From the UHGV virus genome UHGV-0087471: a DNA stretch of 22,215 bases; one strand, written 5' to 3'. Of this stretch, positions 6,237 to 22,168 are shown piece after piece. The translations under genes and the position numbers were made by a program. The notes under the pieces were generated by a model that did not search any database, had not been told where the DNA came from, and saw nothing but the letters and a program-made list of their open reading frames with translations. How positions within the stretch are numbered: the first letter of the stretch is position 1; each line of letters starts with the position of its first letter. The DNA comes from a virus.

Positions 6237-6797
6237 ATGAAAAACACCGATTTTGAAATCCGCACATCTGAACTGACCGCCAGCAATAAAAAGCTGGTGG
6301 GGTATGCCGTTCGCTGGAACAGCCTTTCAGAAATTATCTGGGACGAATTCCGCGAACAGTTCACGCCGGGGGCTTTTGCTGACTATCTGGCGACGGGTAA
6401 TGATGTGCGCTGCCTGTATGAGCATGACTATACCCAACTGCTGGGGCGCACCAAATCCGGCACTCTGGTACTGACTGAGGATAACACCGGGTTACGTTTT
6501 GAACTGACACCGCCGGATACCCAGCTTGGAAAAGATGTGCTTACGCTGGTGGAGCGTGGCGACATTACAGGAATGAGCTTTGGTTTTCGCGCATTATGCG
6601 AGGAGTGGAGTATCGCGCAAAAACCGTATCTGCGTACCGTAACCGCCGCTGAACTCCGTGAAATCACAATAACGTCGATGCCTGCTTATCCAGAATCTGG
6701 CGTGGAGATTGCCCACCGTTCGTTGTTTGCACAGCACCCTGAATTACGTCCGACAGGAAATAATCTTCATCGCTGGTCTGAGCTGGCGGGGTTGTGA
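6237..6797 (+). CDS. Prohead maturation protease, HK97 family (186 aa)
   Basis: Conserved His (LYEHD) and Ser (ITGMSFGF) motifs with spacing typical of HK97 gp4-type proteases; GGAG RBS. Confidence 0.85.
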   Translation: MKNTDFEIRTSELTASNKKLVGYAVRWNSLSEIIWDEFREQFTPGAFADYLATGNDVRCLYEHDYTQLLGRTKSGTLVLTEDNTGLRFELTPPDTQLGKDVLTLVERGDITGMSFGFRALCEEWSIAQKPYLRTVTAAELREITITSMPAYPESGVEIAHRSLFAQHPELRPTGNNLHRWSELAGL

Positions 6798-6798
6798 T

Positions 6799-8013
6799 AT
6801 GTGGTGGCCTTTTAGTCGTAAAAAAAGCGAGCAGCGTAACCTGTCCATTGATGATTTTCTGGCGCTGTCCGGCGTACCGAATACCGGATCCGGAGAATAT
6901 GTTTCTGCCGGGACGGCTGAATCATTGCCTGCAGTGATGAATGCGGTTTCTGTCATCGCTGAGGCGGTGGCCACGATGCCGTGTTATCTGTATCTGGTAC
7001 GTAATGACAAGGGCAGGGAGGCGCGGGAATGGCTGGACAGTCACCCGGTAGATATTCTGCTGAATGAGCAGCCTAATTCGTGCCAGACACCTTACCAGTT
7101 TAAACGCACAATGATGCGTCACTGCCTGCTGAACGGTAACGCCTATGCGGTTATTGAGTGGGGGCAGGACGGGCAGCCAAAATCACTTCATCCTTATGCG
7201 CCGGGGTGTGTTGTACCGGAACGCACAGGCGCACACAAATACCGCTATACCATCACCGAACCCTGTACAGGAACGGTGCGCACGTATTTACAGGAAGAAG
7301 TTCTGCATCTCCGCTATGCCTCGGATGATGGCTTTCTGGGGCGTTCCCCCGTCACGATTTGCCGTGAGGCGCTGGGGCTTGGCCTTGCTCAACAGCGTCA
7401 CGGAGCCAGCATTATGAAAGATGGCATGATGGCGGCAGGGATTATCACGTCAGGCGAATGGCTGGACGGCGTGAAAGGTAAACAGGCATTGGATGCTCTG
7501 GAACGCTACAAGGGGGCGAAAAATGCCGGAAAAACGCCAATCCTTGAAGGGGGCATGGATTACAGGCAACTGGGAATGAGTAACCAGGATGCGGAATGGC
7601 TGGCCTCCCGTCGCTTCTCCATTGAAGACATCGCCCGCATGTTCAACGTATCGCCTATTTTTCTGCAGGAATACAGCAACAGCACCTACAGCAATTTCAG
7701 CGAGGCAAGCCGCGCGTTTCTGACCATGACAATGCGCCCGTGGCTGGCGAACTTCGAACAGCAAATCAAGGCCGCTTTGCTGGTGGCTTCTCCCGTACCT
7801 GGTACCCGTTATCTGGTTGAGTTTGATTCAGCCGATTTATTACGCGCCACACCCACCGAACGTTATGCCACGTATGAGAAAGGGATTAAGAACGGGATCA
7901 TGAATCCGAACGAAGCCCGTGAGCGTGAGGGTATGCCGCCGCGTGAAGGTGGTGATGAGTTCAGCCAGGCATGGAAACAGACTGTGGAAATTAAAGGGAG
8001 AAAAGATGAGTGA
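6799..8013 (+). CDS. Portal protein, HK97 family (404 aa)
   Basis: Size and motifs typical of portal proteins; start set to ATG 6799 just after the protease stop rather than the longest ORF start at 6709. Confidence 0.8.
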   Translation: MWWPFSRKKSEQRNLSIDDFLALSGVPNTGSGEYVSAGTAESLPAVMNAVSVIAEAVATMPCYLYLVRNDKGREAREWLDSHPVDILLNEQPNSCQTPYQFKRTMMRHCLLNGNAYAVIEWGQDGQPKSLHPYAPGCVVPERTGAHKYRYTITEPCTGTVRTYLQEEVLHLRYASDDGFLGRSPVTICREALGLGLAQQRHGASIMKDGMMAAGIITSGEWLDGVKGKQALDALERYKGAKNAGKTPILEGGMDYRQLGMSNQDAEWLASRRFSIEDIARMFNVSPIFLQEYSNSTYSNFSEASRAFLTMTMRPWLANFEQQIKAALLVASPVPGTRYLVEFDSADLLRATPTERYATYEKGIKNGIMNPNEAREREGMPPREGGDEFSQAWKQTVEIKGRKDE

Positions 8014-8308
8014 AGCCAAAATTACACCTGATGAAGTCAGGGCACATCTTCGACTTGATGATGATTTATCCGGTGAAGGCGAACTTCTGAAAATGTATAC
8101 CGATGCGGCGCTGGAAGCCTGCCAGAAGCATATCGGGAAACGTTTTGAAGACGGGCTGGAATTTACCCCGGCAATGCGTGTTGGTTGCCTGATGTACATC
8201 GCTTTCCTGTACGAGAACCGGGAAGCGGTTTCACCAGTGGAGCACTCGGAACTGCCTATGGCTATTTCTGCGCTCTGGTCAGTTTATCGTGACGTAGGGG
8301 TGTACTGA
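8006..8308 (+). CDS. Head-tail connector / DNA-packaging protein, gp6-like (100 aa)
   Basis: N-terminal ITPDEVRAHLRLDDD...E..LLK.Y.DAA.EA pattern typical of gp6-like connectors; AAGGGAG RBS; start ATG 8006 overlaps portal stop. Confidence 0.6.
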   Translation: MSEAKITPDEVRAHLRLDDDLSGEGELLKMYTDAALEACQKHIGKRFEDGLEFTPAMRVGCLMYIAFLYENREAVSPVEHSELPMAISALWSVYRDVGVY

Positions 8309-8748
8309 TGCCGTGGCAACCATTAAGGCGATGCACTGAGCCTGGCTGTAATAAGCGCGTGAAGTCCGGCAAGTGTGAAGAGCACAGGCGGGCTGCATGG
8401 CGTGCAGAGGATGCCAGACGGGGACACCGCCGCGCGCGCGGGTATTCCCGACAGTGGGACAAATACCGCGCCCTGTACCTGAGCAAAAACCCGTTATGCG
8501 TGAGTTGTCTGGCTAAGGGGATTTATACGCCAGCTCTTGTGGTGGATCACATCATTCCCATCAATGGCGGCGGTGATGTTCTCTTCTGGCCTGAGTGGAA
8601 CCACCAGGCATTGTGCCAGACGTGCCACAACCGTAAGACGACACGGGAAGATCCCGCCACGAAAGCGAACCGTAAGGCGGGCATGTATCGCGATCAGGAA
8701 GAACGGGCGGCACACCGTAACGACTGGATGTATGGCGATGATGACTGA
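8308..8748 (+). CDS. HNH endonuclease (terminase-associated, 146 aa)
   Basis: Cys-rich N-terminus (CTEPGCN...C..H) and HNH core (VDHIIPINGGG...NHQALCQTCHNRKT); positioned directly upstream of terS as in HNH-dependent cos packaging systems. Confidence 0.85.
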   Translation: MPWQPLRRCTEPGCNKRVKSGKCEEHRRAAWRAEDARRGHRRARGYSRQWDKYRALYLSKNPLCVSCLAKGIYTPALVVDHIIPINGGGDVLFWPEWNHQALCQTCHNRKTTREDPATKANRKAGMYRDQEERAAHRNDWMYGDDD

Positions 8749-9036
8749 ACAGGAGCAAAACAGGCTGATACGTGGGTTGATAAGGCAGCGTGACACATGG
8801 AAGACACAGGAGACAGGGCACAAAGCCAACAGGACAGGGCGCACAAAACGCACCACAGCGAAGCGATTAACCGACCGTGACCGCGAGGTCATGGAATGTT
8901 TTCGCAATCGCTGGTGAGGCCGTCAGAGGGGGTGGGGGTGGTTTTCAGGACGAAACCGTCCCTGCCGGACACCGACCGCCTCCCCAAATTTTTATGCACG
9001 GGAATTTTTTGAAAAATAATCTGACGAAAAATAAGC

Positions 9037-9393
9037 ATGGCAAGACCACCGAAAGCCCCCGCCTACCTGGATGATATCGCCGTGAAGCAGTGGCGGGAAA
9101 AATCGCGGCAGCTTGCGGAACGGGGAGACCTGACCCCCGCCGACTGGAGCAATCTGGAACTGTATTGCGTCAACTACTCCATTTACCGGAAAGCCGTTGC
9201 AGACCTTGCGGCGCGCGGGTTCAGCATTGTTAACAGTCAGGGCGGCGAGAGCAGAAACCCCGCATTAAGCGCAAAATCCGACGCTGAAAGAGTGATGATA
9301 AAAATGGCCTCCTTGCTCGGTTTTGACCCGATAAGCCGCCGTAAAAATCCACCGGAAACAGAAGAAGAGGACGAGCTTGACCGCCTGGAATAA
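9037..9393 (+). CDS. terS: Terminase small subunit (P27-family-like, 118 aa)
   Basis: Sequence pattern (W...L..G.L...D...L..YC..Y..Y..A...L...G......G....NP) and position immediately upstream of and overlapping the large terminase gene. Confidence 0.75.
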   Translation: MARPPKAPAYLDDIAVKQWREKSRQLAERGDLTPADWSNLELYCVNYSIYRKAVADLAARGFSIVNSQGGESRNPALSAKSDAERVMIKMASLLGFDPISRRKNPPETEEEDELDRLE

Positions 9394-11038
9394 GTACGCA
9401 GAAGACGTAAAAACGGGCAAAATTCCGGCCTGTAAACGGCTGAAACAGGCCGTTAAACGGTACTTTTCGGACCTTGAAAGCCCCCTTTACACGTTCGATC
9501 GTGAGGTTGTGGAGCGGTTTATTGCCTTTTCCAGGGTGTGCGCGCACGTAAAAGGGCCGATGCGTGGCAGACCCATTGAGCTGGAGCCGTGGCAGCAGTT
9601 CGCCTTTGCGTGCATCCTCGGCTTTAAGGTTAAGGCCACCGGACGGCGCAAATACACGAGCGCCTTTATCGAAGTGCCGCGCAAAAATGCGAAATCCACG
9701 ACCGCCGCGATTCTGGCTAACTGGTTTCTGATTATGGAGAACGGTCAGCAGGATATCTACACCGCAGCGGTGAGCCGTGACCAGGCGCGGATCGTCTTTG
9801 ATGATGCGCGTCAGATGTGCCTTTTATCCCGACCGTTACGCAGGCGGGTGAATATTCAGGCGCATAAGGTGATACACCCGAAAACCAACAGCCTGTTAAA
9901 GCCACTGGCAGCAAAAGCGGCAACCATTGAGGGGACAAACCCGAGTCTTGCCATTGTGGATGAATATCACCTGCACCCAGACAACGGGGTTTATTCCGCA
10001 CTTGATATGGGGATGGGCGCACGTCCCGAAGGGCTGTTATTTGCCATTACCACATCGGGCAGTAACGTCGTTTCAGCCTGTAAGCAGCACTATGATTATT
10101 GCTGCCAGATCCTGGACGGCGAAGAGGTCAACGATTCAATTTTTGTACTGATTTACGAACTGGACGACGAAAACGAGGTTGATGATCCGGCGATGTGGAT
10201 AAAGGCTAACCCTAACATCGATGTTTCCGTCGATCGTGAAAAACTGGCCTCAACCATCCAGAAAGCGCGGGGTATTCCGTCGCAATGGGTGGAAATGCTC
10301 ACCAAGCGATTCAATATCTGGTGTCAGGGGGCTACGCCGTGGATGGGTAACGGTGCATGGGCGGAGTGTGCCGGAACGTTCGCGGAGGCGGATTTATACG
10401 GGCAGGAGTGCTACGCGGGGCTGGACTTATCATCAACCAGCGATATTTCCAGCGTGTGCTATGCCTTCCCGGTCGGTAAAAAGATTATGCTGGTTTCCCG
10501 TCACTATCTGCCGGAATTTCAGCTACAGAATCCCGCCAATAAAAACCGCGCCATCTATCGCCAGTGGGTAAAGGCGGGCTGGATACGCACAACACCGGGT
10601 GACTGCATTGATTATGACCGTATCCGTGATGACATCATGGCGGATGCAGAGAATTTCAATATCAGGCTGGTGGGCTTCGATACATGGAACGCCACGCACC
10701 TGAGGACGCAGTTACAGGGCGCAGGATTTGAGGTGGAGCCGTTCCCGCAAACCTACCTCAGATTCAGTCCGGCGGCGAAATCGTTCGAAGTTTTTGTTAA
10801 CCGGAAGGTGATTGTGCATCGTGGTGATCCGGTGCTGGCCTGGTCAATGAGTAATGTTGTGATGCAGAGTGACGCGAACGCCAATATCAAGCCGAACAAG
10901 AAAAAATCATCCAACAAGATAGACCCGAGCGTTGCGGCGCTGATGGCGTTTGGCACATTCCAGGCAGAGCACGAGGACTTTGCATTCGATATGAGCGACA
11001 GCCACAAAGAGCGGCTTGCGGCGTTTGATGGGGTATGA
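9377..11038 (+). CDS. terL: Terminase large subunit (553 aa)
   Basis: Large ORF with terminase-type ATPase N-terminal half and nuclease C-terminal half; appears to start with TTG at 9377 (GAGGA 6 nt upstream), overlapping terS. Confidence 0.9.
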   Translation: MTAWNKYAEDVKTGKIPACKRLKQAVKRYFSDLESPLYTFDREVVERFIAFSRVCAHVKGPMRGRPIELEPWQQFAFACILGFKVKATGRRKYTSAFIEVPRKNAKSTTAAILANWFLIMENGQQDIYTAAVSRDQARIVFDDARQMCLLSRPLRRRVNIQAHKVIHPKTNSLLKPLAAKAATIEGTNPSLAIVDEYHLHPDNGVYSALDMGMGARPEGLLFAITTSGSNVVSACKQHYDYCCQILDGEEVNDSIFVLIYELDDENEVDDPAMWIKANPNIDVSVDREKLASTIQKARGIPSQWVEMLTKRFNIWCQGATPWMGNGAWAECAGTFAEADLYGQECYAGLDLSSTSDISSVCYAFPVGKKIMLVSRHYLPEFQLQNPANKNRAIYRQWVKAGWIRTTPGDCIDYDRIRDDIMADAENFNIRLVGFDTWNATHLRTQLQGAGFEVEPFPQTYLRFSPAAKSFEVFVNRKVIVHRGDPVLAWSMSNVVMQSDANANIKPNKKKSSNKIDPSVAALMAFGTFQAEHEDFAFDMSDSHKERLAAFDGV

Positions 11039-11328
11039 CGAGAATGAGCGAAACCGAACTACTAAAAATAATCCGCCGTGTTACCGGAGCCAGCCAGACA
11101 GCAGACAAACAGGAGGCCACGCAGCCGGACAGCGTGATAGCCGAAAATTACGCGCGTGTGGTGGCTGAGGTGATGCGCCGTGACGGTATTGAGCTTAACG
11201 GCGTGGATATGCGCAACATACGAACCAGAGTCCTTGAGTTGCTGGCATACCGTCGCCGTTCTCAACAACGGAGGGAGAGCGCGAAAAATACTTATCAGTG
11301 GAAGAAGCCGGAACGGTTGCGGCGGTAA
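11035..11328 (+). CDS. Hypothetical protein (97 aa), last gene of packaging module
   Basis: ATG 11035 overlaps terL stop (ATGA); basic C-terminus; no recognisable motif. Confidence 0.4.
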   Translation: MTRMSETELLKIIRRVTGASQTADKQEATQPDSVIAENYARVVAEVMRRDGIELNGVDMRNIRTRVLELLAYRRRSQQRRESAKNTYQWKKPERLRR

Positions 11329-12254
11329 CTTGCAGATATTCCCGATAACGTAAAATTGCGTTGGCTGGCAGAGTGCAAATTTGCACGATGGCCTAACCCA
11401 TTGATTGTTTCGGAAACCTCAATTTGAGGAGGCCGGACAGCGTGACGGAGGGTGACAACCAGTGACACGCCGTGACAAAAAGACGGTTTAACCATCCATT
11501 AAAAATCGACGTGATTTTGTGCTTTCCGTATGAGGTGGCCAGCGTCATTTTTTAGTGAGAAATTCTGGTCAGGGGCGTTGGCTGAATGGTTATTTTATCG
11601 TGCCCATGCACAGGGAGGGGGCGGGTAAAATCTCTGGAGGTGATGCCTGTCAGGACCGCCGCCTGACCCTTCCTCACATCGCCGCAGGTTCGAAAACTTT
11701 TTTTGTGTCAGGTGCGCACGGAATTGATAGATAAAACCTATATTAAAAAATCACGGAAGCCGTGCCATTGCTGGAGCAGTCAAAAATTCCACATCTCACG
11801 GCAGGCAAAAAAAGCGAATTTTGGGCCAGTTGAGGATAAAAAAGGGCTCACTAGTTTTGCACATCCTGGTATCGGGGTCGTCAGCCTCCCGCCAGTAACT
11901 AGGTAACTAATCACGCTGGTGGGCATGATGCCGATGCCGGGATCTCGGTATCGGTTTATCTGTGATCATCCACCAGCTTGATGACAGATAACAGGGAGTC
12001 ATAACGGTTAAAGCGTGTTGATCTTTGTTCGTGGTTGTTCGATATTGTTCGTAAAGCGGTGTAGTTAATGGTGTAGTTAATTTCGCTGTTTTTGACGAGC
12101 TTATCATTTGCAACGCAATGAAAAACAAAGACTAATTAACAAAATGCTATAAATGATAGTTATCTATCATGTGGAGTAGATTGGTCAGGCAAATAAGCTC
12201 TTGTCAGCGGCAGGGCGTTCTGCCGATAACCGTAACCGAAGATGATAACTGACA

Positions 12255-12575
12255 ATGGGTAAAACGAACGACTGGCTGGACTTTGATCAACTGGCGGAAG
12301 AAAAAGTTCGCGACGCGCTAAAACCGCCATCTATGTATAAAGTGATATTAGTCAATGATGATTATACTCCGATGGAGTTTGTTATTGATGTGTTACAAAA
12401 ATTCTTTTCTTATGATGTAGAACGTGCAACGCAATTGATGCTCGCTGTTCACTACCAGGGGAAGGCCATTTGCGGAGTCTTTACCGCTGAGGTTGCAGAA
12501 ACCAAAGTGGCGATGGTGAACAAGTACGCGAGGGAGAATGAGCATCCATTGCTGTGTACGCTAGAAAAAGCCTGA
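12255..12575 (+). CDS. clpS: ATP-dependent Clp protease adaptor ClpS
   Basis: 106-aa translation recognised as E. coli ClpS ([43 protein letters not shown]...). Confidence 0.97.
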
Positions 12576-12605
12576 ATGCAGGCATAAAAATTGGGGGAGG
12601 TGCCT

Positions 12606-14882
12606 ATGCTCAATCAAGAACTGGAACTCAGTTTAAATATGGCTTTCGCCAGAGCGCGCGAGCACCGTCATGAGTTTATGACCGTCGAGCACTTGTTACT
12701 GGCGCTGCTCAGTAACCCATCTGCCCGGGAGGCGCTGGAAGCGTGTTCTGTAGATTTGGTTGCGCTCCGTCAGGAACTGGAAGCCTTTATTGAACAAACC
12801 ACACCCGTTCTGCCTGCCAGTGAAGAGGAGCGCGACACACAGCCGACGTTGAGTTTTCAGCGTGTACTGCAACGTGCGGTCTTCCATGTCCAGTCCTCCG
12901 GTCGCAATGAGGTTACCGGTGCAAACGTTCTGGTCGCTATCTTTAGCGAACAGGAGTCGCAGGCGGCATATCTGTTGCGCAAACATGAAGTCAGCCGTCT
13001 CGATGTGGTGAACTTTATCTCTCATGGCACGCGTAAAGACGAGCCGACACAGTCTTCTGATCCTGGCAGCCAGCCAAACAGCGAAGAACAAGCTGGTGGG
13101 GAGGAACGTATGGAGAATTTCACGACGAACCTGAATCAGCTTGCGCGAGTGGGCGGAATCGACCCACTAATTGGTCGTGAGAAGGAGCTGGAGCGTGCTA
13201 TTCAGGTTCTCTGCCGTCGCCGTAAAAACAACCCGCTGCTGGTGGGGGAGTCTGGTGTCGGTAAAACCGCGATTGCGGAGGGGCTTGCATGGCGAATTGT
13301 TCAGGGCGATGTGCCGGAAGTGATGGCTGACTGTACGATTTACTCTCTCGATATCGGTTCCCTGTTAGCGGGCACAAAATATCGCGGCGACTTTGAAAAA
13401 CGTTTTAAAGCGTTGCTCAAGCAGCTGGAGCAGGACACTAACAGCATCCTGTTTATTGATGAGATCCACACCATTATCGGTGCGGGTGCAGCGTCTGGTG
13501 GCCAGGTCGATGCGGCTAACCTGATTAAACCGTTGCTCTCCAGCGGTAAAATCCGCGTAATTGGTTCGACAACCTATCAGGAGTTCAGCAACATTTTCGA
13601 GAAAGACCGTGCTCTGGCGCGTCGCTTCCAGAAAATTGATATTACTGAACCGTCAATCGAAGAAACTGTTCAAATCATCAATGGCCTGAAACCGAAGTAT
13701 GAAGCGCACCACGACGTGCGTTATACCGCAAAAGCGGTGCGTGCGGCGGTAGAGCTGGCGGTGAAATACATTAACGATCGTCATCTGCCGGATAAAGCGA
13801 TTGATGTTATCGACGAAGCGGGCGCTCGCGCACGTCTGATGCCGGTAAGCAAACGCAAGAAAACCGTTAATGTGGCGGATATTGAATCCGTGGTGGCCCG
13901 TATTGCACGCATTCCAGAGAAGAGTGTTTCTCAGAGTGACCGCGATACCCTGAAAAACCTCGGCGATCGCCTGAAAATGCTGGTCTTCGGTCAGGATAAA
14001 GCCATTGAGGCGCTGACTGAAGCCATTAAGATGGCGCGTGCAGGTTTAGGTCACGAACATAAACCGGTCGGTTCGTTCCTGTTTGCCGGCCCTACTGGGG
14101 TCGGGAAAACAGAGGTGACGGTACAGCTTTCGAAAGCGTTGGGCATTGAGCTTCTGCGCTTTGATATGTCCGAGTATATGGAACGCCATACCGTCAGCCG
14201 TCTGATTGGTGCGCCTCCGGGATACGTTGGTTTTGATCAGGGCGGTTTGCTGACTGATGCGGTCATCAAGCATCCACATGCGGTGCTGCTGCTGGACGAA
14301 ATCGAGAAAGCGCACCCGGACGTGTTCAATATTCTGTTGCAGGTGATGGATAACGGTACGCTGACCGATAACAACGGACGCAAAGCGGACTTCCGTAACG
14401 TGGTGCTGGTGATGACCACTAATGCCGGGGTACGGGAAACTGAGCGCAAATCCATTGGTCTTATCCACCAGGATAACAGCACCGATGCGATGGAAGAGAT
14501 CAAGAAGATCTTTACACCGGAATTCCGTAACCGTCTCGACAACATTATCTGGTTCGATCATCTGTCAACCGACGTGATCCATCAGGTGGTGGATAAATTC
14601 ATCGTCGAGTTGCAGGTTCAGTTGGATCAGAAAGGTGTTTCTCTGGAAGTGAGCCAGGAAGCGCGTAACTGGCTGGCCGAGAAAGGTTACGACCGGGCAA
14701 TGGGCGCACGTCCGATGGCGCGTGTCATCCAGGACAACCTGAAAAAACCGCTCGCCAACGAACTGCTGTTTGGTTCGCTGGTGGACGGCGGTCAGGTCAC
14801 CGTCGCGCTGGATAAAGAGAAAAATGAGCTGACTTACGGATTCCAGAGTGCACAAAAGCACAAGGCGGAAGCAGCGCATTAA
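12606..14882 (+). CDS. clpA: ATP-dependent Clp protease ATP-binding subunit ClpA
   Basis: 758-aa translation recognised as ClpA (two AAA+ modules; Walker A GESGVGKT and GPTGVGKT). Start set to ATG 12606 with GGGGGAGG RBS rather than upstream TTG 12591. Confidence 0.97.
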
Positions 14883-15225: not shown

Positions 15226-15313
15226 TGGCGGTGAGGGGGGGATTCGAACCCCCGATACGTTGCCGTATACACACTTTCCAGGCGTGCTCCTTCAGCCACT
15301 CGGACACCTCACC
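15226..15313 (-). tRNA. serW: tRNA-Ser (anticodon GGA)
   Basis: 88-nt sequence GGTGAGGTGTCCGAGTGGCTGAAGGAGCACGCCTGGAAAGTGTG...GGTTCGAATCCCCCCCTCACCGCCA on minus strand; long variable arm, encoded CCA; clpA-serW gap (344 bp) matches my recollection of E. coli K-12. Confidence 0.95.
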
Positions 15314-15385: not shown

Positions 15386-15678
15386 GAAGAATTTTTATGA
15401 TAATTATTGTTTGCTCATACTGTAAACAAGTTGTGCAGTATATCTACATCTGATGCGCCGCGCGATAAATAAGCCGCAATCCGTGAGATAAATGGACACA
15501 GTGCGGCTTTTCAGATACGGAAAAGGAATTACAGATTATCAGTCGTAAGCAACCCACGCTTACTGGCAAGGATGGTTTACAATGCTGAAAGCGCCTCCCG
15601 GCAATACCGCCAATCATCACTCAAACAGAAAAAATTATTGCTCATGGTTCACTCCGGTAATGAATCGTTTTACAGGCG

Positions 15679-16272
15679 TCATTCGGTCATGGAAAGATTG
15701 CTGATTTCGGTAATCCCGGCAATTTCCTCGCTGACGGATTTCAGTTCGATTTCCAGCTTGGTGCGTTCGTTGACCAGCGCAGCTACGGTCTTACGGCGGT
15801 CTGCCAGTGACGGAAGGTTGTCATTGCCCCACGCCACGCTTTTATCCTTTTTGAGCGCTTCGGTCAGGCGGGTGGCGACCACATCCGGGAAGAAAAAGCA
15901 TAACTTACGCATAACCGTCATCCCGACATCAGCCAGGGGGACATTCCCGCTCAGTCCCACCAGACGGAACAGACCAGAAATATCACCATTCTCATTTTCC
16001 AGATTACCCCAGCGTTCGGCGTTCCCTTCACTGCCGGAACCGTTGCAAAGAGCAAGCTTGAATGACTGATATTCTTCCTGCCCGAATCGCTCAATATATT
16101 CAGGAATAAAGGAACAGTAATCATTAAGCGATAATGGCATATCCTGTAATGTGGTTATTTCACTGTTAATCTCTCCAATTCGGCGGGAGAGCTTTTCTTT
16201 CTGCTCATTCAGGGAGGCAAGATTATTTTTAACGGCGTTCAGTGCTTCGATAAGGGAAATAACAGGTTTCAT
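15679..16272 (-). CDS. Hypothetical coiled-coil protein (197 aa), scaffold-like
   Basis: Start ATG 16272 with GGAG RBS, 1 nt after stop of upstream gene; N- and C-terminal heptad-like segments (LIEALNAVKNNLASLNEQKEKLSRRIGEINSEITTLQ; KTVAALVNERTKLEIELKSVSEEIAGI). Function inferred only from composition. Confidence 0.55.
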   Translation of the reverse strand: MKPVISLIEALNAVKNNLASLNEQKEKLSRRIGEINSEITTLQDMPLSLNDYCSFIPEYIERFGQEEYQSFKLALCNGSGSEGNAERWGNLENENGDISGLFRLVGLSGNVPLADVGMTVMRKLCFFFPDVVATRLTEALKKDKSVAWGNDNLPSLADRRKTVAALVNERTKLEIELKSVSEEIAGITEISNLSMTE

Positions 16273-16273
16273 T

Positions 16274-16888
16274 TTAATAACTCCAGATGAAAGGCGTGGT
16301 GAGGGCGAGCGCTTCAGAATAGGAGACATTGCAGGCTGCACTTACGTCCTTTATTAAAAGGTGCTGTGCTGCCCTCTGACTGTCTGCTATGCCGTCAAAC
16401 TCTGAAAAATGAACGTGTGATTCATTGTGATAAAAGCAAACCGGGTAACAGCTTTCCATAAATTCTACCTGCGCCAGTCCCTTTACTGCTGGAGGCTGTG
16501 AGCCGAGAAAACCGATATGCTGAAGATACCAGGCACCGATTCCTGCCGGGTTGTTCGCTTCGCCGGGTCTATAAAATGCCGCAGACACTTTCCTGTAACG
16601 CCCTGCGCGTACCAGTCCCAGCAGGGTTTCATCAGGCTTAACCAGCGCGAAAAGCCTGCCGTTTTTACTTATCAGCCCAGTTGTTTCACCATAAGATGGG
16701 CTGTTGCTGGCCGGATGTCCAATACACAGCGGCGCACCATAACCCGCACGATGATAGCCGTTATAGGCTGCCGCCATGTTGTCGATATCCTCGTCGGAAA
16801 AGGCAATTTCCTGCCCAGCCATCGTGATATGCGTTCCCGCCCGGAATATCTCGATAGTTTTCCAGTTGCCAATATCGATATCTTTCAT
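16274..16888 (-). CDS. Hypothetical protein (204 aa); weak resemblance to phage prohead proteases (HK97 / Mu gpI-like)
   Basis: Start codon overlaps stop of upstream Mor-like gene. By-eye motif similarity to the satellite's own HK97 protease: His-containing CIGHP, then GLISKNGRLFALVKPDETLLGLV...KVSAAFYR paralleling GTLVLTEDNTGLRFELTPPDTQLG...TGMSFGFR. Unverified. Confidence 0.5.
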   Translation of the reverse strand: MKDIDIGNWKTIEIFRAGTHITMAGQEIAFSDEDIDNMAAAYNGYHRAGYGAPLCIGHPASNSPSYGETTGLISKNGRLFALVKPDETLLGLVRAGRYRKVSAAFYRPGEANNPAGIGAWYLQHIGFLGSQPPAVKGLAQVEFMESCYPVCFYHNESHVHFSEFDGIADSQRAAQHLLIKDVSAACNVSYSEALALTTPFIWSY

Positions 16889-16889
16889 T

Positions 16890-17423
16890 TTAAATTACCC
16901 CATATTTCGCATCGCGCTGTATTTTATTTTTCTTGCGTTCGGCGGCTATAATCTGATAAATACACTGAATGGAACGCTTGTATTTTTTTGATAGTTCAAA
17001 AATAGAGATACCCTGATAAAAATCAGCCAGTATTTTTGAGTTCCTGTCGAAAGTGTTTTTTGATGCGCCCATAGGGATATATATATTCCCCCTGAAAAAT
17101 GTATTCCTGAGACATTCAGTGATGGCAGGAGAAAGTTTTTCGGCTTGCGAACAGAGGTAAGGTATGGTTCCTAATGTCTGCTCAATAGATTCAGTCAGCT
17201 CCTGTAGGAAGCGAACTGCCTTAGGTGCTCTTTCTCGGTGTTCAGCCATATACCCCTGGCAGCCACCAAGGTTATCAGAGATACCCAACACAATATGATT
17301 AGCCGCACTGCAGGACTGTTGCCGTGAATACCCTTTGTTGATCAGAAACACTTCTATAGCATCGCCCATTGCCCCCAAAGTATCGGATGAAGCATACAAT
17401 CCTTCTCTTGTAATCATAATCAC
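16890..17423 (-). CDS. Mor/C-family transcriptional activator-like protein (177 aa)
   Basis: C-terminal region GNIYIPMG...FDRNSKILADFYQGISIFELSKKYKRSIQCIYQIIAAERKK resembles the Mu Mor motif (G.VYIP.G ... DF.G.N..EL...Y......Y.I) with a C-terminal HTH; identification from remembered family signature, not a search. Confidence 0.5.
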   Translation of the reverse strand: MIMITREGLYASSDTLGAMGDAIEVFLINKGYSRQQSCSAANHIVLGISDNLGGCQGYMAEHRERAPKAVRFLQELTESIEQTLGTIPYLCSQAEKLSPAITECLRNTFFRGNIYIPMGASKNTFDRNSKILADFYQGISIFELSKKYKRSIQCIYQIIAAERKKNKIQRDAKYGVI

Positions 17424-17657
17424 ACCTCGTCAACGATAAATATGCGCACATAAAGCCTTTATAAAGCTTTATGAGGTGCATTACTGGTGTCATTCCATGA
17501 TGCACACCACCAACAACCAAAAACGCCTTACAGAGCATTTCAATGTGTGTTATTAATGTGGATTAAGAATATGGTTTTGGGGCGAGAATGTTTTTTAATG
17601 TACTTTAGATATGACGAAGCCCCTCAAAGGAGGGGCGAGGCGGAAAACTATTTATAA

Positions 17658-17936
17658 CTATTCCTTACTCTCCTGATCAAGACGATTACCTATCAGGTTA
17701 ATCATTGCCATTGCATCAGATAGCAGGATACTGTTAACAAGTGCTAAGGGCGTCTGTGTTGATTTATCATCAACGGCAACAGAAAGTTCATCATTCAGGC
17801 GACGAACGGCCTCAAGACGGCTAAAGGCGGCTTCCCATATTTCTGTACTCGGGGCATCAGCATTAACAAACAAAACATCGTAAGACGTTCCCTGAGACTC
17901 ATGAGGACAGGCTATGAAATTAGCAGTAGCTTTCAT
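17658..17936 (-). CDS. Hypothetical acidic protein (92 aa)
   Basis: ORF whose start overlaps the stop of the upstream gene (ATGA at 17933..17936); no recognisable motif. Confidence 0.45.
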   Translation of the reverse strand: MKATANFIACPHESQGTSYDVLFVNADAPSTEIWEAAFSRLEAVRRLNDELSVAVDDKSTQTPLALVNSILLSDAMAMINLIGNRLDQESKE

Positions 17937-18412
17937 TTTGCAGTCCTCCGGTTAATTATAAATTTATTATAAATTTCATAACTTGCGGCATTCAGTCCTG
18001 GACTGTATTTATCTGCCAGTGAACAGGCAATGAATTCTTCAATCGATTTAGTCAGTATATCAAGCTCAGTTGTTCCGGAATAACGCAAGGCCACTCGAAA
18101 TAATTCTCGGCAGTATGTTTTTTTATGGTCAATATTTTGTAACTGCTGTTGCGGTATATCACGACGTTCAAATATATTAACAAATGCATTAAGCGGGAAG
18201 CTATGATTTGCCTGCGGATATTGCTCATAGGAAAACACCACAGTATTACCGTTGCATTCTTTAACAATTGCATTCATACCGCTGTTAATTTCAATATACC
18301 ACTCTCCTATACATGGAGGATTGATAGCTTCGCTCTGTGCCTTGATTAAAGGTAAGCGGATAGTATCCACTTGGTTTGTTGCAACTGAATCGTTAGACTT
18401 GTCGTTAGCCAT
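17933..18412 (-). CDS. Hypothetical protein (159 aa)
   Basis: Start ATG 18412 with AGGA RBS about 9 nt upstream (longest ORF extends to 18430); first gene of the minus-strand cluster; no recognisable motif. Confidence 0.45.
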   Translation of the reverse strand: MANDKSNDSVATNQVDTIRLPLIKAQSEAINPPCIGEWYIEINSGMNAIVKECNGNTVVFSYEQYPQANHSFPLNAFVNIFERRDIPQQQLQNIDHKKTYCRELFRVALRYSGTTELDILTKSIEEFIACSLADKYSPGLNAASYEIYNKFIINRRTAK

Positions 18413-18600
18413 GACTGTTATCCTACACATAACGGTTTTTGGTTAGGCCATAGCAAGTGCTCGCAACATTTGTTATGGCCGTTTCTTTGGCCCTTTCCCT
18501 GTGATAAGGTATAGACCTAACAAGTAAACACTAAGCCATAGGTCTATACATGTCAACTATCTTGAGAGATAAAAGCCAAAAAGGGGCAGGGAAAGCCCCC

Positions 18601-18741
18601 ATGTTTAACGTTAGAATATCGCCAGATTTGAAAGAACAGTTTGAAATACAAGCAAAAAAAGAAGGTGTTAGCTTGGGAAACTGGCTCAAGGAACTTGGCA
18701 GGGCGGAACTAAAACGTAAGGGGATCGAGCCGAAAGGGTGA
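18601..18741 (+). CDS. Small ribbon-helix-helix (Arc/MetJ/CopG-like) regulator (46 aa)
   Basis: MFNVRISPDLKEQFEIQAKKEGVSLGNWLKELGRAEL fits a beta-strand/helix/Gly/helix RHH pattern; divergent from the minus-strand cluster; ATG 18601 preferred (GGGA upstream) over ORF start 18550. Confidence 0.4.
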   Translation: MFNVRISPDLKEQFEIQAKKEGVSLGNWLKELGRAELKRKGIEPKG

Positions 18742-18767
18742 TGTTTTAGTCTCCCTGTGTTTGATTA

Positions 18768-19601
18768 AAAGCGAAATCGCTTTCACATTTAAAGTTCAAG
18801 ATAGCCAATGCCATCACCAAAGCGGACAGCGCTGTCCGCTTTTCATCAGTAAAAACCACATATTTACGCCAAAACGCTCAACGTTGAGCGCTACGTACCC
18901 CGGCAAAAGCGCAAGCGTCTGCGCTTTTGGTAACAAGCAATCAGCATTTAAATGCGGACAACGTTGACCGTTTTGAGGAATCAATGTCGGCTGAGCAAAA
19001 ACGACAACGTTGTCGTTTTTAAAACGGCAAGCGCTTACCGTTTCAGATTATCGAGGCGGTAAGAGTTTACCGTTTGGTGTCAATTATGTTCAATAAGCGA
19101 AAACGTTTTCGCATTTTCTCACCTAACGCGGCAAACCTTCTTTGTCCTAGATGGAAAAACGACAGCGCTGTCGTTTCTAATCCGGGGTTCCAAACCGCTC
19201 AGCGCTGAGCGGTTCTGTGGCTTTCTTACAATCCAAATCCGCCAACGTTGGCAGATTTGCAAATATCACATATGATTGATGGTCCCGAATCACAAATGTC
19301 CCAGCGCGGGGATATTTCAAGTAGTTCAATCATTTCATGCGCTGGCAGTCATCTCCAAAACTGCGAACGCCTGCCCTTTCAGTACAGTTTGGTAATATAT
19401 ATTGGTAAGCTTTACTTGTAGAAATATAAAACTCCAAAAGCGCCAGCGCTGGCGCTTTGTAAGGCCAGCAATATCATTCCCAGCGCTGGAATACTAAAAG
19501 GCGGATTCCTGCATCTTAATTTGAGATGGAATCTCATGGCAATCCAGTGTTAACGTAGGGTTTTAGCCAGTACTCACGACTTGAATATGCCAGCGCTGGC
19601 A
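18768..19601. repeat. Array of about 17 short perfect or near-perfect palindromes (14-24 bp) centred on AGCGCT or AACGTT
   Basis: Perfect palindromes at 18819..18842, 18875..18890, 18997..19020, 19097..19112, 19157..19176, 19193..19214, 19437..19458, 19588..19601; imperfect ones between them; one more of the same family at 21106..21129 beyond the IS903 copy. Confidence 0.6.
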
Positions 19602-19823
19602 CATTTGAAGTCTGGTAACATCAATAATCTAATGACACCTGATGTAATTTTGAACCCTGAACTGGAATCAACCCCAAATTTAATGGCAACAGCTATCAGC
19701 CAGATTACTGATGAACGTGACCTGCTGAACCAATTACTTGACCAAGCACAGATGGCCGATGCATTCGAGCAATTTTCCCGAACGGTTCGGACTTCTAAAC
19801 TGGCTTTTGTGAAGGAAAACAAG

Positions 19824-20880
19824 GGCTTTGTTGAATAAATCAGATTTCGGGTAAGTCTCCCCCGTAGCGGGTTGTGTTTTCAGGCAATACGCACGCTTTC
19901 AGGCATACCTGCTTTCGTCATTTTGTTCAGCGCTCGTACCAGGGCCATAGCCTCTGCAACCTGACCATCGTAGTCACGCAGTGTCAGTGAACCTCCGAAC
20001 AGCTGTTTTACCCGGTACATCGCCGTTTCCGCTATCGAGCGACGGTTATAATCTGTTGTCCATTTCCACCGCGCATTACTCCCGGTCAGCCGCTGATTCG
20101 CAACAGCACGGTTACGGTCTGCATATTCACCGGGCCAGTAACCCGCGCCTTTTCGGGGCGGGATAAGCGCGCTGATTTTCTTACGCCGCAGTTCATCGTG
20201 ACAGAGCCGGGTGTCGTAAGCGCCGTCTGCCGATGCTGCCCTGATTTTTCTGTGAGTCTGCCGGATAAGACCCGGGAAGGCTTCTGAGTCCGTCACATTG
20301 TTCAGCGACAGGTCTGCACAGATGATTTCATGTGTTTTGCTGTCAACTGCCAGATGCAACTTTCGCCATATACGACGGCGTTCTTTGCCGTGTTTTTTGA
20401 CTTTCCATTCGCCTTCACCAAAGACCTTCAGCCCGGTGGAATCAATCACCAGATGCGCGATTTCACCTCGGGTGAACGTTTTGAAACTGACATTAACCGA
20501 CTTTGCGCGCTTGCTGACACTGGTGTAATCCGGGCAGCGCAACGGAACATTCATCAGTGTAAAAATGGAATCAATAAAACCCTGTGCAGCCCGCAGGGTC
20601 AACCTGAACACGCGTTTAATGACCAGAACGGTGGTGATGGCGAGATCAGAATAGCGCTGAGGTCTTCCCCGTGATGAAGGCGTTGCCGACTCATACCAGG
20701 CCTGAATAGCTTCATCATCCAGCCAGAAAGTTATGGAGCCACGGTTGATGAGGGCTTTATTGTAGGTGGGCCAGTTGGTGATTTTGAACTTTTGCTTTGC
20801 CACGGAACGGTCTGCGTTGTCGGGAAGATGCGTGATCTGATCCTTCAACTCAGCAAAAGTTCGATTTATTCAACAAAGCC
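19824..20880 (-). mobile_element. IS903 (IS5 family), complete 1057-bp copy
   Basis: 18-bp terminal inverted repeats GGCTTTGTTGAATAAATC at 19824..19841 and 20863..20880; ends match remembered IS903 sequence; 9-bp direct target duplication GAAAACAAG at 19815..19823 and 20881..20889. Confidence 0.92.
19880..20803 (-). CDS. IS903 transposase (DDE, IS5 family; 307 aa if started at GTG 20803)
   Basis: Translation matches IS903 transposase as I recall it (VAKQKFKITNW...). The longest ORF extends 15 codons further to 20848; the GTG start is chosen to match the commonly annotated 307-aa product. Confidence 0.85.
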   Translation of the reverse strand: MAKQKFKITNWPTYNKALINRGSITFWLDDEAIQAWYESATPSSRGRPQRYSDLAITTVLVIKRVFRLTLRAAQGFIDSIFTLMNVPLRCPDYTSVSKRAKSVNVSFKTFTRGEIAHLVIDSTGLKVFGEGEWKVKKHGKERRRIWRKLHLAVDSKTHEIICADLSLNNVTDSEAFPGLIRQTHRKIRAASADGAYDTRLCHDELRRKKISALIPPRKGAGYWPGEYADRNRAVANQRLTGSNARWKWTTDYNRRSIAETAMYRVKQLFGGSLTLRDYDGQVAEAMALVRALNKMTKAGMPESVRIA

Positions 20881-21876
20881 GAAAACAAGCTGTATCGCAA
20901 TCTAAAGGGTAAGAAGACACCGAACGGTTCGGAGTTTTCGGGTACATGGGATGAATTTTGTAATGTTCTTGGAATATCCGTTGATAAGGCAGATTTGGAT
21001 ATTGCCAACCTAAGAACCTTCGGCGAAAAAGCCCTCGAATCCATGCCTCGTATGGGGAGCGGCTATCGTGAACTTCGTCAGTTCCGCCGACTACAAGACT
21101 ATCAGAAAAGCGCCAACGTTGGCGCTTTTGGGAAAAGCCAAACAACCCTGCTATTCCGCTTCATGAAACACTTGAGGCATCACAAAACCAAATAGCATTA
21201 CACCAGTAACAGATCATTTCTCAGTTCGGAGATGGCCTGCTGTTTGATCTGTTGTGTAACGAAGAAAAAATTCGCAGTCATTTATCACGCAGCGCTGAAG
21301 AAATGCTGGAAGCTGGACAAGCGCTGGTTGTATCGCGTAATTGTTTGCTGCATGAAGAGTGGCTAAATTTTCTTTCCCCTTTAGATTTAGAGTGCTGTGT
21401 TGCTCAACGCATAGCACAAGCAGCCGTATAATTTTCAAATGTGTCGATGTCGACGTATTTGATCCATACTGTTGGCACCAAATTTAAATCATAGATGCGG
21501 GGCTGCGCGATATTGAGATTAAATCTGTCACAAAAATATTGGCCTGCGGCACGCGGATACTGGGAGCAAAGGAAGTTCGGGTGTGATAACCCAGACTGCC
21601 ATCACGTAAAGTACCTGACTAACTCATGCGGAATCATCCTTTTTGTTATGAACCCTGTTTCAGCAAACTCGATTCTAAGTTGCCAGGAAGGATGATTTTA
21701 ATGTCCCACTTATCTTTCATATAGCGGAAAAGAATTTCAGTTCTGTTCACCAGATCCCACGTTATCCCACTCCAATTCGTTATTTATCTCACGGATCACC
21801 ATTCATTTATCTCACGTCCCTTCATACATCGAGACAAGTTACGGACTTATACTTCTAAAGTACTCCATACATATCA

Positions 21877-21946: not shown

Positions 21947-22168
<222 letters not shown>

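Follow-up and report, generated by a model that had tools for sequence, protein, structure and literature searches.

What kind of element lies between serW and infA in UHGV virus genome UHGV-0087471, when its inverted repeats look like transposon ends but the only transposase inside belongs to an unrelated insertion sequence? We refer to the whole 22,215-nucleotide stretch of DNA that was analysed as the window. A preliminary description of the window noted 15-bp inverted repeats with related copies nearby, compared the layout to Tn7-like or Mu-like ends, and proposed a nonautonomous element that is mobilised in trans. Our analysis supports this proposal. The repeats are very probably the transposase-binding termini of a transposase-less element that is moved by the transposase of a BcepMu-type (Mu-like) phage residing in the same Escherichia coli genome. 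The element is probably a satellite of this transposable phage, although its packaging is inferred from indirect evidence.

The repeats are real. The 15-mer ATCCGTGAGATAAAT is located at 15479-15493 and its exact reverse complement at 21782-21796. They lie 166 and 151 bp from serW (5' end 15313) and infA (stop 21947), in agreement with the preliminary description. The second copies also exist: CGCGCGATAAAT is found at 15459-15470 and CGTGAGATAAAT on the minus strand at 21805-21816, while the preliminary description had placed the latter slightly off, at 21804-21818. The 15-mers are the inner sites (positions 29-43 from each tip), and the nearby second copies are the outer, terminal sites. The true termini of the element are 15451 and 21824.

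Not every aspect of the repeats is unexpected. A single exact 15-mer inverted pair in 22 kb is not rare on its own (about 0.23 expected). Four matches to the 12-mer with up to two mismatches are also unremarkable (1.67 expected; 9 of 100 shuffled sequences reach four). In contrast, three exact copies of one 12-mer, with 0.0026 expected, are far beyond chance. The four 12-bp sites (CGYGMGATAAAT, 23-bp period) lie in the same register inside a 43-nt, 74%-complementary terminal inverted repeat (15451-15493 and 21782-21824). This repeat coincides to the base with the insertion junctions defined by comparison to K-12.

The empty K-12 serW-infA site reads ...TACATC|GAGACA... and contains neither repeat, which excludes that the repeats are native intergenic structure. 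TACATC occurs once in K-12, but in the window it occurs on both sides of a TGA...TCA insert. The insert is 6,374 bp long, or 5.3 kb without its IS903 passenger. The insert and its flanks contain the following features.

15445-15450: left copy of the 6-bp target-site duplication TACATC.
15451-15493, plus strand: left terminal inverted repeat (tail-fibre-side or "R-type" end), starting TGATGCGCC, with the outer site CGCGCGATAAAT at 15459-15470 and the inner site CGTGAGATAAAT at 15482-15493.
15679-16272, minus strand: 197-aa orphan coiled-coil protein of unassigned function.
16274-16888, minus strand: 204-aa prohead (head-maturation) protease domain without the scaffold domain.
16890-17417, minus strand: Mor-family transcription activator (175 aa).
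17658-17936, minus strand: 92-aa protein of unknown function.
17933-18412, minus strand: 159-aa protein of unknown function.
18550-18741, plus strand: 63-aa ribbon-helix-helix (Arc/HicB-like) putative repressor, divergent from the leftward operon.
18819-19605: array of 11 palindromes of about 20-26 bp, with one more at 21106-21129, of the form AAA-variable stem-ARCGYT-stem'-TTT.
19587-21195, plus strand: 180-aa gene split by IS903 into exon-like pieces at 19587-19823 and about 20890-21195.
19824-20880, minus strand: IS903-like insertion (IS5 family) of 1057 bp, with the 9-bp duplication GAAAACAAG at 19815-19823 and 20881-20889.
21488-21632, plus strand: frameshifted fragment of an IS91-type transposase zinc-binding domain (pseudogene).
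21630-21818, minus strand: right-end segment related to the Mor-side end of the resident prophage, with candidate further TnpA sites and pac.
21782-21824, minus strand: right terminal inverted repeat (Mor-side or "L-type" end), ending ...CCCTTCA, with sites at 21805-21816 (outer) and 21782-21793 (inner).
21825-21830: right copy of the target-site duplication TACATC.

To find out which transposase could recognise these ends, we compared them to known phages and to the rest of the host genome. Each end starts with TGA and carries two 12-bp sites, at positions 9-20 and 32-43. This is the layout of both ends of phage BcepMu, of the prophage in strain AW1.7, of phage Phi06_2974 B, and of a complete BcepMu-like prophage in ssuB of the same ST131 genomes. 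TG...CA termini, found in all satellites and helpers examined, are described as characteristic of BcepMu-related prophages (PMC2628397). The ssuB prophage is 38.5 kb long and flanked by its own 6-bp duplication (TCTCGA). It encodes a DDE transposase (TnpA) 69% identical to BcepMu gp09 and 98.8% identical to that of phage PhiKM, together with an AAA+ partner (AAA_22/ExeA). A second helper prophage also has a 6-bp duplication (GTAGCT). By blastn, the right 189 nt of the element is 91% identical to the Mor-side end of the resident prophage. At the left end, the first 20 nt are identical to the Gin/tail-fibre-side end of the resident prophage and of phage Phi06_2974 B, although outside the 12-bp sites the tail-fibre-side end is only 74-79% identical to helper ends. 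The ends are thus BcepMu-type (rve/Tn552-related DDE transposase) and not Tn7-like: the target duplication is 6 bp, where Tn7-like elements would be expected to show 5 bp and 22-bp TnsB sites, and we found no Tns genes.

The element itself encodes neither TnpA nor TnpB. A tblastn search of the helper TnpA and TnpB against nine satellites at E <= 10 returned only noise (E >= 0.25), and no transposase domain was found in any ORF. Hence, it is not a transposable phage itself but a nonautonomous derivative or parasite. The IS91-type fragment, identified from the RefSeq annotation of the identical locus, is too short to be a transposase. The IS903-like insertion is a secondary passenger that plays no part in moving the element. 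It is absent from otherwise 100% identical copies in SCU-387 and LR882997, and the 180-aa gene it splits is intact in the IS-free copy (L005, 7137-7679).

The element has moved repeatedly. We found at least 12 independent insertions in five genera, all with 6-bp duplications. Besides TACATC, these include GCCGAA, ACTCAT, GTGAGG, AGTGAA and TAAGGA, as well as CCGTGG, ACAGCC and TTTTAC in other genera. The IS903-bearing copy has itself moved, with CATACT into the BREX gene brxC and with TGCATC at eptA/adiC. Strain SK0832 has two copies. Copies that are 100% identical occur at different loci in separate strains (ST131-type strains, SCU-387, an ETEC isolate). Some metagenome contigs stop exactly at the element termini: an IMG/VR contig (L025; 7,799 bp) begins and ends exactly there, and the contigs of one study show at least three different flanks.

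The satellite core is present in 33 of 5426 genomes, helper tnpAB in 640, and their union is 646. So about 27 of the 33 E. coli carriers have a helper, against about 11% of other genomes. This statistic rests on few independent lineages and on set arithmetic across three searches. About six carrier genomes, inferred to be the CX strains and MS 115-1, lack a detectable helper; from the arithmetic and their shared dacD-sbmC site we infer that they form one lineage. AW1.7 carries a satellite of the type of a larger relative (L004) and a Phi06-type helper with the matching L-type end. Satellite L-type end variants match the helper variant in the same genome for both ZH063 and AW1.7.

The element is not a bare MITE-like shell. 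It carries conserved phage-morphogenesis and regulatory genes under purifying selection (dN/dS 0.06-0.26), which makes it satellite-like. The protease domain matches phrog_976 (E = 1.5e-42), but covers only profile positions 31-172 of 415. It is 39% identical to the helper's 371-aa protease-scaffold and keeps the invariant GHP, KVSAxFY and YLxHxGFLGxQPP motifs (dN/dS 0.06-0.20). The coiled-coil ORF follows the protease ORF, where helper phages have the scaffold domain fused to the C-terminus of the protease. It has no Pfam or PHROG hit and belongs to only 33 clusters, all from Enterobacterales and all "hypothetical". It shows no profile similarity to the helper scaffold domain, and its AF2 model is an antiparallel coiled coil without a fold match (dN/dS 0.13-0.26). 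It has no detectable relation to any scaffold. The Mor activator (PF08765, E = 3e-15; phrog_532, late transcriptional activator) is only 23% identical to the helper Mor (dN/dS 0.11-0.22). The putative repressor matches PF05534 (E = 1.3e-6) and phrog_228, Arc-like repressor (E = 4.2e-6).

The 92-aa protein has no family hit; a gene of similar size (276-291 nt) sits at the same position in annotated relatives. At the position of the 159-aa protein (dN/dS 0.19) larger relatives have a 245-aa DUF3102-like protein, and the L004 homologue matches helper DUF3102 at 29% identity. The 180-aa gene matches phrog_4623, with a weaker hit to phrog_1748, the family also hit by the DUF3102-like protein of larger relatives. 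These larger relatives (7.8 kb) add a tape-measure gene and a small-terminase (TerS-like) N-terminal domain. The window's variant lacks both, so it may be a reduced form that only transposes.

From these observations we infer the following mechanism. When the helper prophage enters lytic growth, its TnpA would bind the end sites of the element and, together with the AAA+ partner (ExeA/MuB-like), assemble a transpososome on those ends. The element would be transposed replicatively, in parallel with the phage. The helper's headful machinery would then package the element together with adjacent host DNA, starting from the helper-like Mor-side end. The tape-measure gene of the resident helper is, however, annotated as a pseudogene in ZH063. 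The element's own genes would modulate helper gene expression and head assembly to favour its spread: the Arc-like repressor, the Mor activator, the protease domain with the orphan coiled-coil protein and, in larger relatives, the tape measure and TerS-like N-terminal domain.

Alternatively, the element could be an inert deletion remnant of the BcepMu-like phage, a decayed mini-prophage that kept both ends and is moved passively, like an engineered mini-Mu or a MITE. It does share ends with the phage and has homologues of phage genes (protease, Mor, TMP, gp27 N-terminus). Furthermore, the window's copy has lost genes present in relatives and tolerates IS903 in one gene while still moving. However, the gene order and orientation are not collinear with the phage, since Mor and the gp27-like gene are inverted and relocated. 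The proteins are only 23-42% identical to those of the helper, while the ends are up to 91% identical. The same architecture recurs in five genera, the genes are under purifying selection, and neither the orphan gene family nor the palindrome array has a counterpart in the phage. We consider this scenario unlikely.

Even less likely is that one of the small hypothetical proteins (92, 159, 180 or 197 aa) is a novel transposase and that the ends resemble phage ends by shared ancestry only. Four ORFs indeed have no assigned function, and the carriers without a detectable helper would fit this view. Yet no ORF has a DDE, HUH or recombinase signature, the 180-aa gene is split in copies that still moved, target duplication length and end sites are the same as those of the helper, and co-occurrence with the helper is strong. 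A tRNA-associated genomic island, integrated at serW by a site-specific recombinase with the repeats as att or arm-type sites, is suggested only by the adjacent tRNA gene, a classical island hotspot. The insertion lies 138 bp upstream of the tRNA 5' end and not in its 3' end, there is no integrase and no duplicated tRNA segment, and the same element sits at many unrelated loci. The K-12 comparison and the multiple insertion sites refute this explanation.

How does the element compare to known systems? With the BcepMu-like phages (genus Bcepmuvirus: BcepMu, phiE255, Escherichia phage PhiKM, Phi06_2974 B and the ST131 ssuB prophage) it shares the termini, the two sites per end, distinct L-type and R-type ends, the 6-bp duplication, near-random insertion, and the Mor, protease, TMP and gp27 homologues. 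It differs in its size (5-8 kb instead of 34-38 kb), its rearranged gene order, its distantly related proteins and the absence of TnpA, TnpB, capsid, portal, TerL, tail and lysis genes. Like engineered mini-Mu elements it consists of two phage ends without a transposase, mobilised in trans, and packaging with flanking host DNA would be expected. It is, however, natural, carries its own conserved regulatory and morphogenetic genes, and belongs to the BcepMu/Tn552-type lineage with a 6-bp duplication, whereas the MuA lineage typically generates 5 bp. With nonautonomous transposons and MITEs (for example Tn7-like or Tn552-like derivatives) it shares inverted ends with transposase-binding sites, a target duplication and mobilisation in trans. 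It differs in its conserved, selected set of phage-type genes and in that the trans-acting transposase belongs to a phage.

Phage satellites (P4-like, SaPI/PICI, cfPICI, PLE) are similarly small, lack a full structural gene set, and depend on and co-occur with a specific helper. Shared features also include a repressor plus a late-gene-type activator (compare P4 delta), head-assembly genes and, in larger relatives, a TerS-like gene, as in PICIs. Known satellites generally integrate with tyrosine or serine recombinases at att sites and replicate with their own primase/helicase and origin. This element has neither, and would both integrate and replicate through the helper's DDE transposase. We found no published description of such an element.

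It is possible, though this remains tentative, that the family is the first natural satellite of a transposable (Mu-like) phage. It would have given up both integrase and replicon, relying on replicative transposition by the helper's DDE transposase and on headful packaging by the helper, and would use its protease domain and orphan coiled-coil protein to remodel helper heads. In this scenario the palindromes, amplified to 6-12 copies, would attract or titrate a helper factor as an enhancer mimic or decoy. Eleven palindromes are observed in 879 bp against 0.1 expected. Across satellites and helpers we identified 52 distinct copies with covarying stem positions, and each helper phage has exactly one, inside its DUF3102 gene next to tnpA.

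The two 15-mers are located at 15479-15493 and, as the exact reverse complement, at 21782-21796, where the preliminary description placed them. The second copies near each of them also exist: CGCGCGATAAAT is found at 15459-15470, and CGTGAGATAAAT (minus strand) at 21805-21816. A single exact 15-bp inverted pair in 22 kb is not improbable by itself (about 0.23 expected). In contrast, three exact copies of one 12-mer, with 0.0026 expected, are far beyond chance. The four sites sit in register, 23 bp apart, inside a 43-nt imperfect terminal inverted repeat. The insert and its surroundings are arranged as follows:

15226-15313, minus strand: serW (tRNA-Ser GGA)
15451-21824: the insert (6,374 bp)
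15451-15493 / 21782-21824: the 43-nt imperfect terminal inverted repeat
21947-22165, minus strand: infA

The boundaries of the insert follow from a comparison with the empty site. The empty K-12 intergenic region reads ...GTATATC TACATC GAGACAAG..., while our sequence reads ...TACATC|TGATGCGCC... on the left and ...CCCTTCA|TACATC|GAGACAAG... on the right. Hence, the insert starts with TGA, ends with TCA and is flanked by a 6-bp target duplication (TSD). Neither repeat is present in the empty site. The alternative that the preliminary description had itself put forward as a refutation, that the repeats are native intergenic structure of island-free strains, therefore fails.

The element is mobile and inserts at many sites. 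A megablast search against 5,426 complete E. coli genomes finds the identical locus in about 20 ST131-type genomes. The same element also occurs elsewhere. In ETEC isolate LR882997 it lies in the tail-gene cluster of a lambdoid prophage, without IS903 (TSD GTGAGG), and in SCU-387 it is again without IS903. In OZ038535 it lies between eptA and adiC (TSD TGCATC). In the ST131 strain SK0832 (NZ_AP046542.1, positions 6773-13146 of the retrieved region), which also has the serW-infA copy, a second copy lies inside brxC of a BREX-1 anti-phage system (TSD CATACT). This insertion disrupts brxC and probably inactivates BREX. The copies in OZ038535 and brxC carry IS903 at the same position, so the IS903-bearing element itself has moved recently.

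Relatives at about 87% identity, 7.6-7.9 kb long, lie in glvC (TSD GCCGAA), between dacD and sbmC (ACTCAT), and in AW1.7 (AGTGAA). Elements with 84-89% identical protease genes, the same ends and 6-bp TSDs (CCGTGG, ACAGCC, TTTTAC) occur in Intestinirhabdus alba, Erwinia tracheiphila and a metagenome bin. Tenebrionibacter intestinalis also has the protease gene and one such end, but its other end was not found.

To understand what the ends are, we compared them to phage genomes. A blastn search hit the two contig ends of Escherichia phage Phi06_2974 B. Furthermore, the ST131 genome that carries the locus studied here (ZH063) also carries a complete 38.5-kb BcepMu-like prophage inserted in ssuB, 64 kb away (NZ_CP014522.1, positions 333-38877 of the retrieved region, L010). 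Its tail-fibre/Gin-side end is TGATGCGCCGCGCGATAAAT...TGTGCGATAAATGG, its Mor-side end is TGATCAGACATGAGATAAAT...CCGTGAGATAAATAACGAATTGGAGTGGG, and its own 6-bp TSD is TCTCGA. The prophage's 589-aa rve-domain transposase is 69% identical to BcepMu gp09/phiE255 gp40 and 98.8% to phage PhiKM from a uropathogenic strain. It is followed by an AAA_22/ExeA ATPase. The tape-measure gene of the prophage (9942-12707) contains internal repeats and is annotated as a truncated pseudogene. However, the near-identical PhiKM record has a sequencing gap at the same gene, so the pseudogene call may be an assembly or annotation artefact.

BcepMu's own termini have the same layout: TGAAG, a site at positions 9-20 and a second at 32-43. 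An in-register comparison of 24 ends gives TGAt..gcCg.GaGATAAAt(N11)CGTGAGATAAaT. The element keeps the distinction between the two kinds of end. Its left end is the fibre-side type, with its first 20 nt identical to the helper's, and its right 189 bp is 91% identical to the helper's Mor-side end. TG...CA termini are described as characteristic of BcepMu-related prophages (PMC2628397).

The element does not encode a transposase that could be responsible for these ends. The only transposase ORF belongs to the IS903-like insertion, and tblastn with helper TnpA and TnpB against nine satellites gives only noise. Two insertion sequence remnants or passengers are present:

19824-20880: IS903-like element (IS5 family, 1057 bp, 9-bp TSD GAAAACAAG), which splits a 180-aa phrog_4623 gene (weaker hit to phrog_1748) of the satellite
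21488-21632: frameshifted fragment of an IS91-family transposase zinc-binding domain, a 145-nt pseudogene

IS-free copies that are 100% identical elsewhere exist in SCU-387 and LR882997, so the IS903 insertion is recent. The IS91-type fragment lies inside the right arm of this satellite type. The 7.8-kb relatives have a Mu gp27-like (TerS N-terminal) gene near that end instead.

On the minus strand, running towards the left end, and divergent from it, the element encodes:

minus strand: a 159-aa and a 92-aa ORF without assigned function
16890-17417, minus strand: a Mor-family activator (PF08765, E = 3e-15)
minus strand: a 204-aa protein matching only the protease part of the head-maturation protease family phrog_976 (E = 1.5e-42)
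minus strand: a 197-aa orphan protein
18550-18741, divergently transcribed: a 63-aa Arc/HicB-like ribbon-helix-helix protein

The helper's homologue of the protease is a 371-aa protease-scaffold fusion. In BcepMu this is gp32 with nested gp33, annotated as the Mu I/Z equivalents. The satellite protease keeps the motifs that are invariant across satellites, helpers and BcepMu: GHP, KVSAxFY and YLxHxGFLGxQPP. The 197-aa protein occupies the position of the scaffold domain but shows no relation to it (hhalign probability 0.3%). Searches of Pfam, PHROGs (also at E <= 1) and PADLOC gave nothing meaningful for this protein, which belongs to a family of only 33 clusters, all in Enterobacterales. It is predicted to form an antiparallel coiled coil (AF2 model, pLDDT 74), with only generic coiled-coil hits in PDB and BFVD and no fold match. 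The idea that it is an alternative scaffold therefore rests only on gene position.

Larger relatives add an 827-aa tape-measure protein, 70% identical to the helper's, and a 114-aa protein sharing only the N-terminal 53 residues of Mu gp27/TerS. The satellite TMP is not shorter than that of the helper: the AW1.7 helper TMP is 821 aa and the satellite TMP is 827 aa. Satellite proteins are 23-42% identical to the helper's, and the gene order is not collinear with the phage. Between satellites, dN/dS is 0.06-0.26 for the protease, the orphan protein, Mor and the 159-aa ORF. These are functional genes, not decaying remnants. PADLOC found no defence system in the element.

The regulatory genes are far more divergent between satellites (Mor 64-82% nt, Arc-like about 55% nt) than the protease and coiled-coil genes (83-98% nt), when our element is compared with three other satellites (L004, L015 and L028). 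This looks like immunity-type modular exchange. The divergent control region between the 159-aa ORF and the Arc-like gene (18405-18550) contains a hairpin with a 14-bp stem (18446-18480) and an inverted repeat TATAGACCTA...TAGGTCTATA just upstream of the Arc-like start, the latter being a candidate operator. In a search of Rfam only the tRNA passes the threshold. A sub-threshold hit to R1162 antisense RNA at 18405-18481 (E = 0.017) is probably due to chance. A promoter and terminator scan yielded counts that were not above those of shuffled sequences.

The element is associated with its putative helper. The satellite core occurs in 33 of 5,426 genomes, at 36 places, BcepMu-like tnpAB occurs in 640 genomes, and the union of the two is 646. 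Therefore about 27 of the 33 carriers also have a helper, against roughly 11% of other genomes. This arithmetic is approximate, and the number of independent lineages is small (about eight). Set arithmetic leaves six carriers without a helper, which we infer to be the five CX strains and MS 115-1, which share the dacD-sbmC insertion. The helper is directly confirmed in ZH063, in SK1144, OZ040539, LR882997 and SCU-387 (two places each in the combined search), and in AW1.7. In AW1.7 the satellite's L-type end (TGATTAGAC...GAGATAATT) matches the Phi06-type helper in that genome.

Metagenomes provide hints of activity in nature, since contigs (L025, L028, L030-L032) stop exactly at the satellite termini or within 54 bp of them. 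An IMG/VR contig of 7,799 bp (IMGVR_UViG_3300029165_000015, L025) begins at TGATTAGAC and ends at GGTGGATCA, exactly the termini. An ENA contig is the element plus 54 bp of flank on each side. Contigs from one study carry the same satellite with at least three different flanks. One of them, L030, is chimeric: its left and right flanks belong to different insertions, and the right flank matches the TSD of contig L032. This is what assemblers produce when an element sits at many sites in a sample, and suggests several insertion sites within one study's samples.

Taken together, BcepMu-type ends with a 6-bp TSD, the absence of a transposase, many insertion sites with recent movement, a helper in the same genomes and genes under selection make us confident that the element is mobilised in trans by the BcepMu-like transposase. 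We infer that helper TnpA and TnpB act on the ends during lytic growth, giving replicative transposition, and that the helper packages the element headful from the helper-like Mor-side end. The element's repressor, Mor, protease/coiled-coil module, TMP and TerS-like genes are inferred to manipulate helper expression and assembly. We are less sure of full satellite behaviour (packaging, transfer, interference), which we consider about as likely as not, or slightly more.

Other explanations were considered and rejected. We reject a tRNA island and att sites as the origin of the repeats. Tn7-like ends, which the preliminary description had named as a possibility alongside Mu-like ones, are rejected because the TSD is 6 bp and the sites are BcepMu-type. 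The IS91-type zinc-finger fragment cannot be the mobilising enzyme either: it is a frameshifted pseudogene, and IS91 makes neither inverted repeats nor a TSD.

On our reading the element works like an engineered mini-Mu, phage ends complemented in trans, while in gene content and helper association it looks like a phage satellite. It is not a member of the transposable phages, because it has no TnpA or TnpB. Without packaging data its place among satellites remains provisional. All well-described phage satellites (P4-like, PICI/SaPI, cfPICI, PLE) use site-specific recombinases and their own replication functions. A satellite that borrows a helper's transposase would add a new mode of molecular piracy. 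We found no description of a satellite or natural non-autonomous derivative of a transposable phage in the literature we searched, although a report elsewhere is not excluded. The Pseudomonas AH14a/b helper-satellite pair is not transposable.

Such a satellite would also explain a class of 'hypothetical/Mor/HicB' islets that lie at variable positions in Enterobacterales genomes. With ends of about 200 bp, a TnpA/TnpB pair and a candidate cis-element, it would give a compact natural system for studying BcepMu-type transposition, which is poorly characterised compared with Mu. There are practical consequences as well. The element is currently mobile in pandemic ST131 and inserts into genes, with one copy in brxC and others within lambdoid prophage tail-gene clusters. 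If packaged headful in small or normal heads, it would co-transduce adjacent host DNA.

One feature of the element remains unexplained. The non-coding stretch 18819-19605, plus 21106-21129, holds 12 palindromes of the form AAA, 5-6 variable bp, ARCGYT, the complement, then TTT. There are 11 in 879 bp, against 0.1 expected. Related arrays of 20-32-bp palindromes are found in other satellites (L004 11817-12396; L015 11346-11961). Satellites have 2-12 copies. Each E. coli helper has exactly one, inside the DUF3102 gene just upstream of tnpA (the ssuB prophage L010 30405-32; helpers L007 21367-98 and L027 ~12478-12504). This points to a cis-acting DNA or RNA structure of the helper that satellites have amplified, possibly an enhancer or decoy, a hairpin in RNA or ssDNA, or an operator array. 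Across satellites and helpers there are 52 distinct copies, in which the stem positions vary but stay complementary, while the centre and the A/T flanks are fixed. Two helpers differ in stem sequence, and therefore in amino acids, yet both keep a perfect palindrome.
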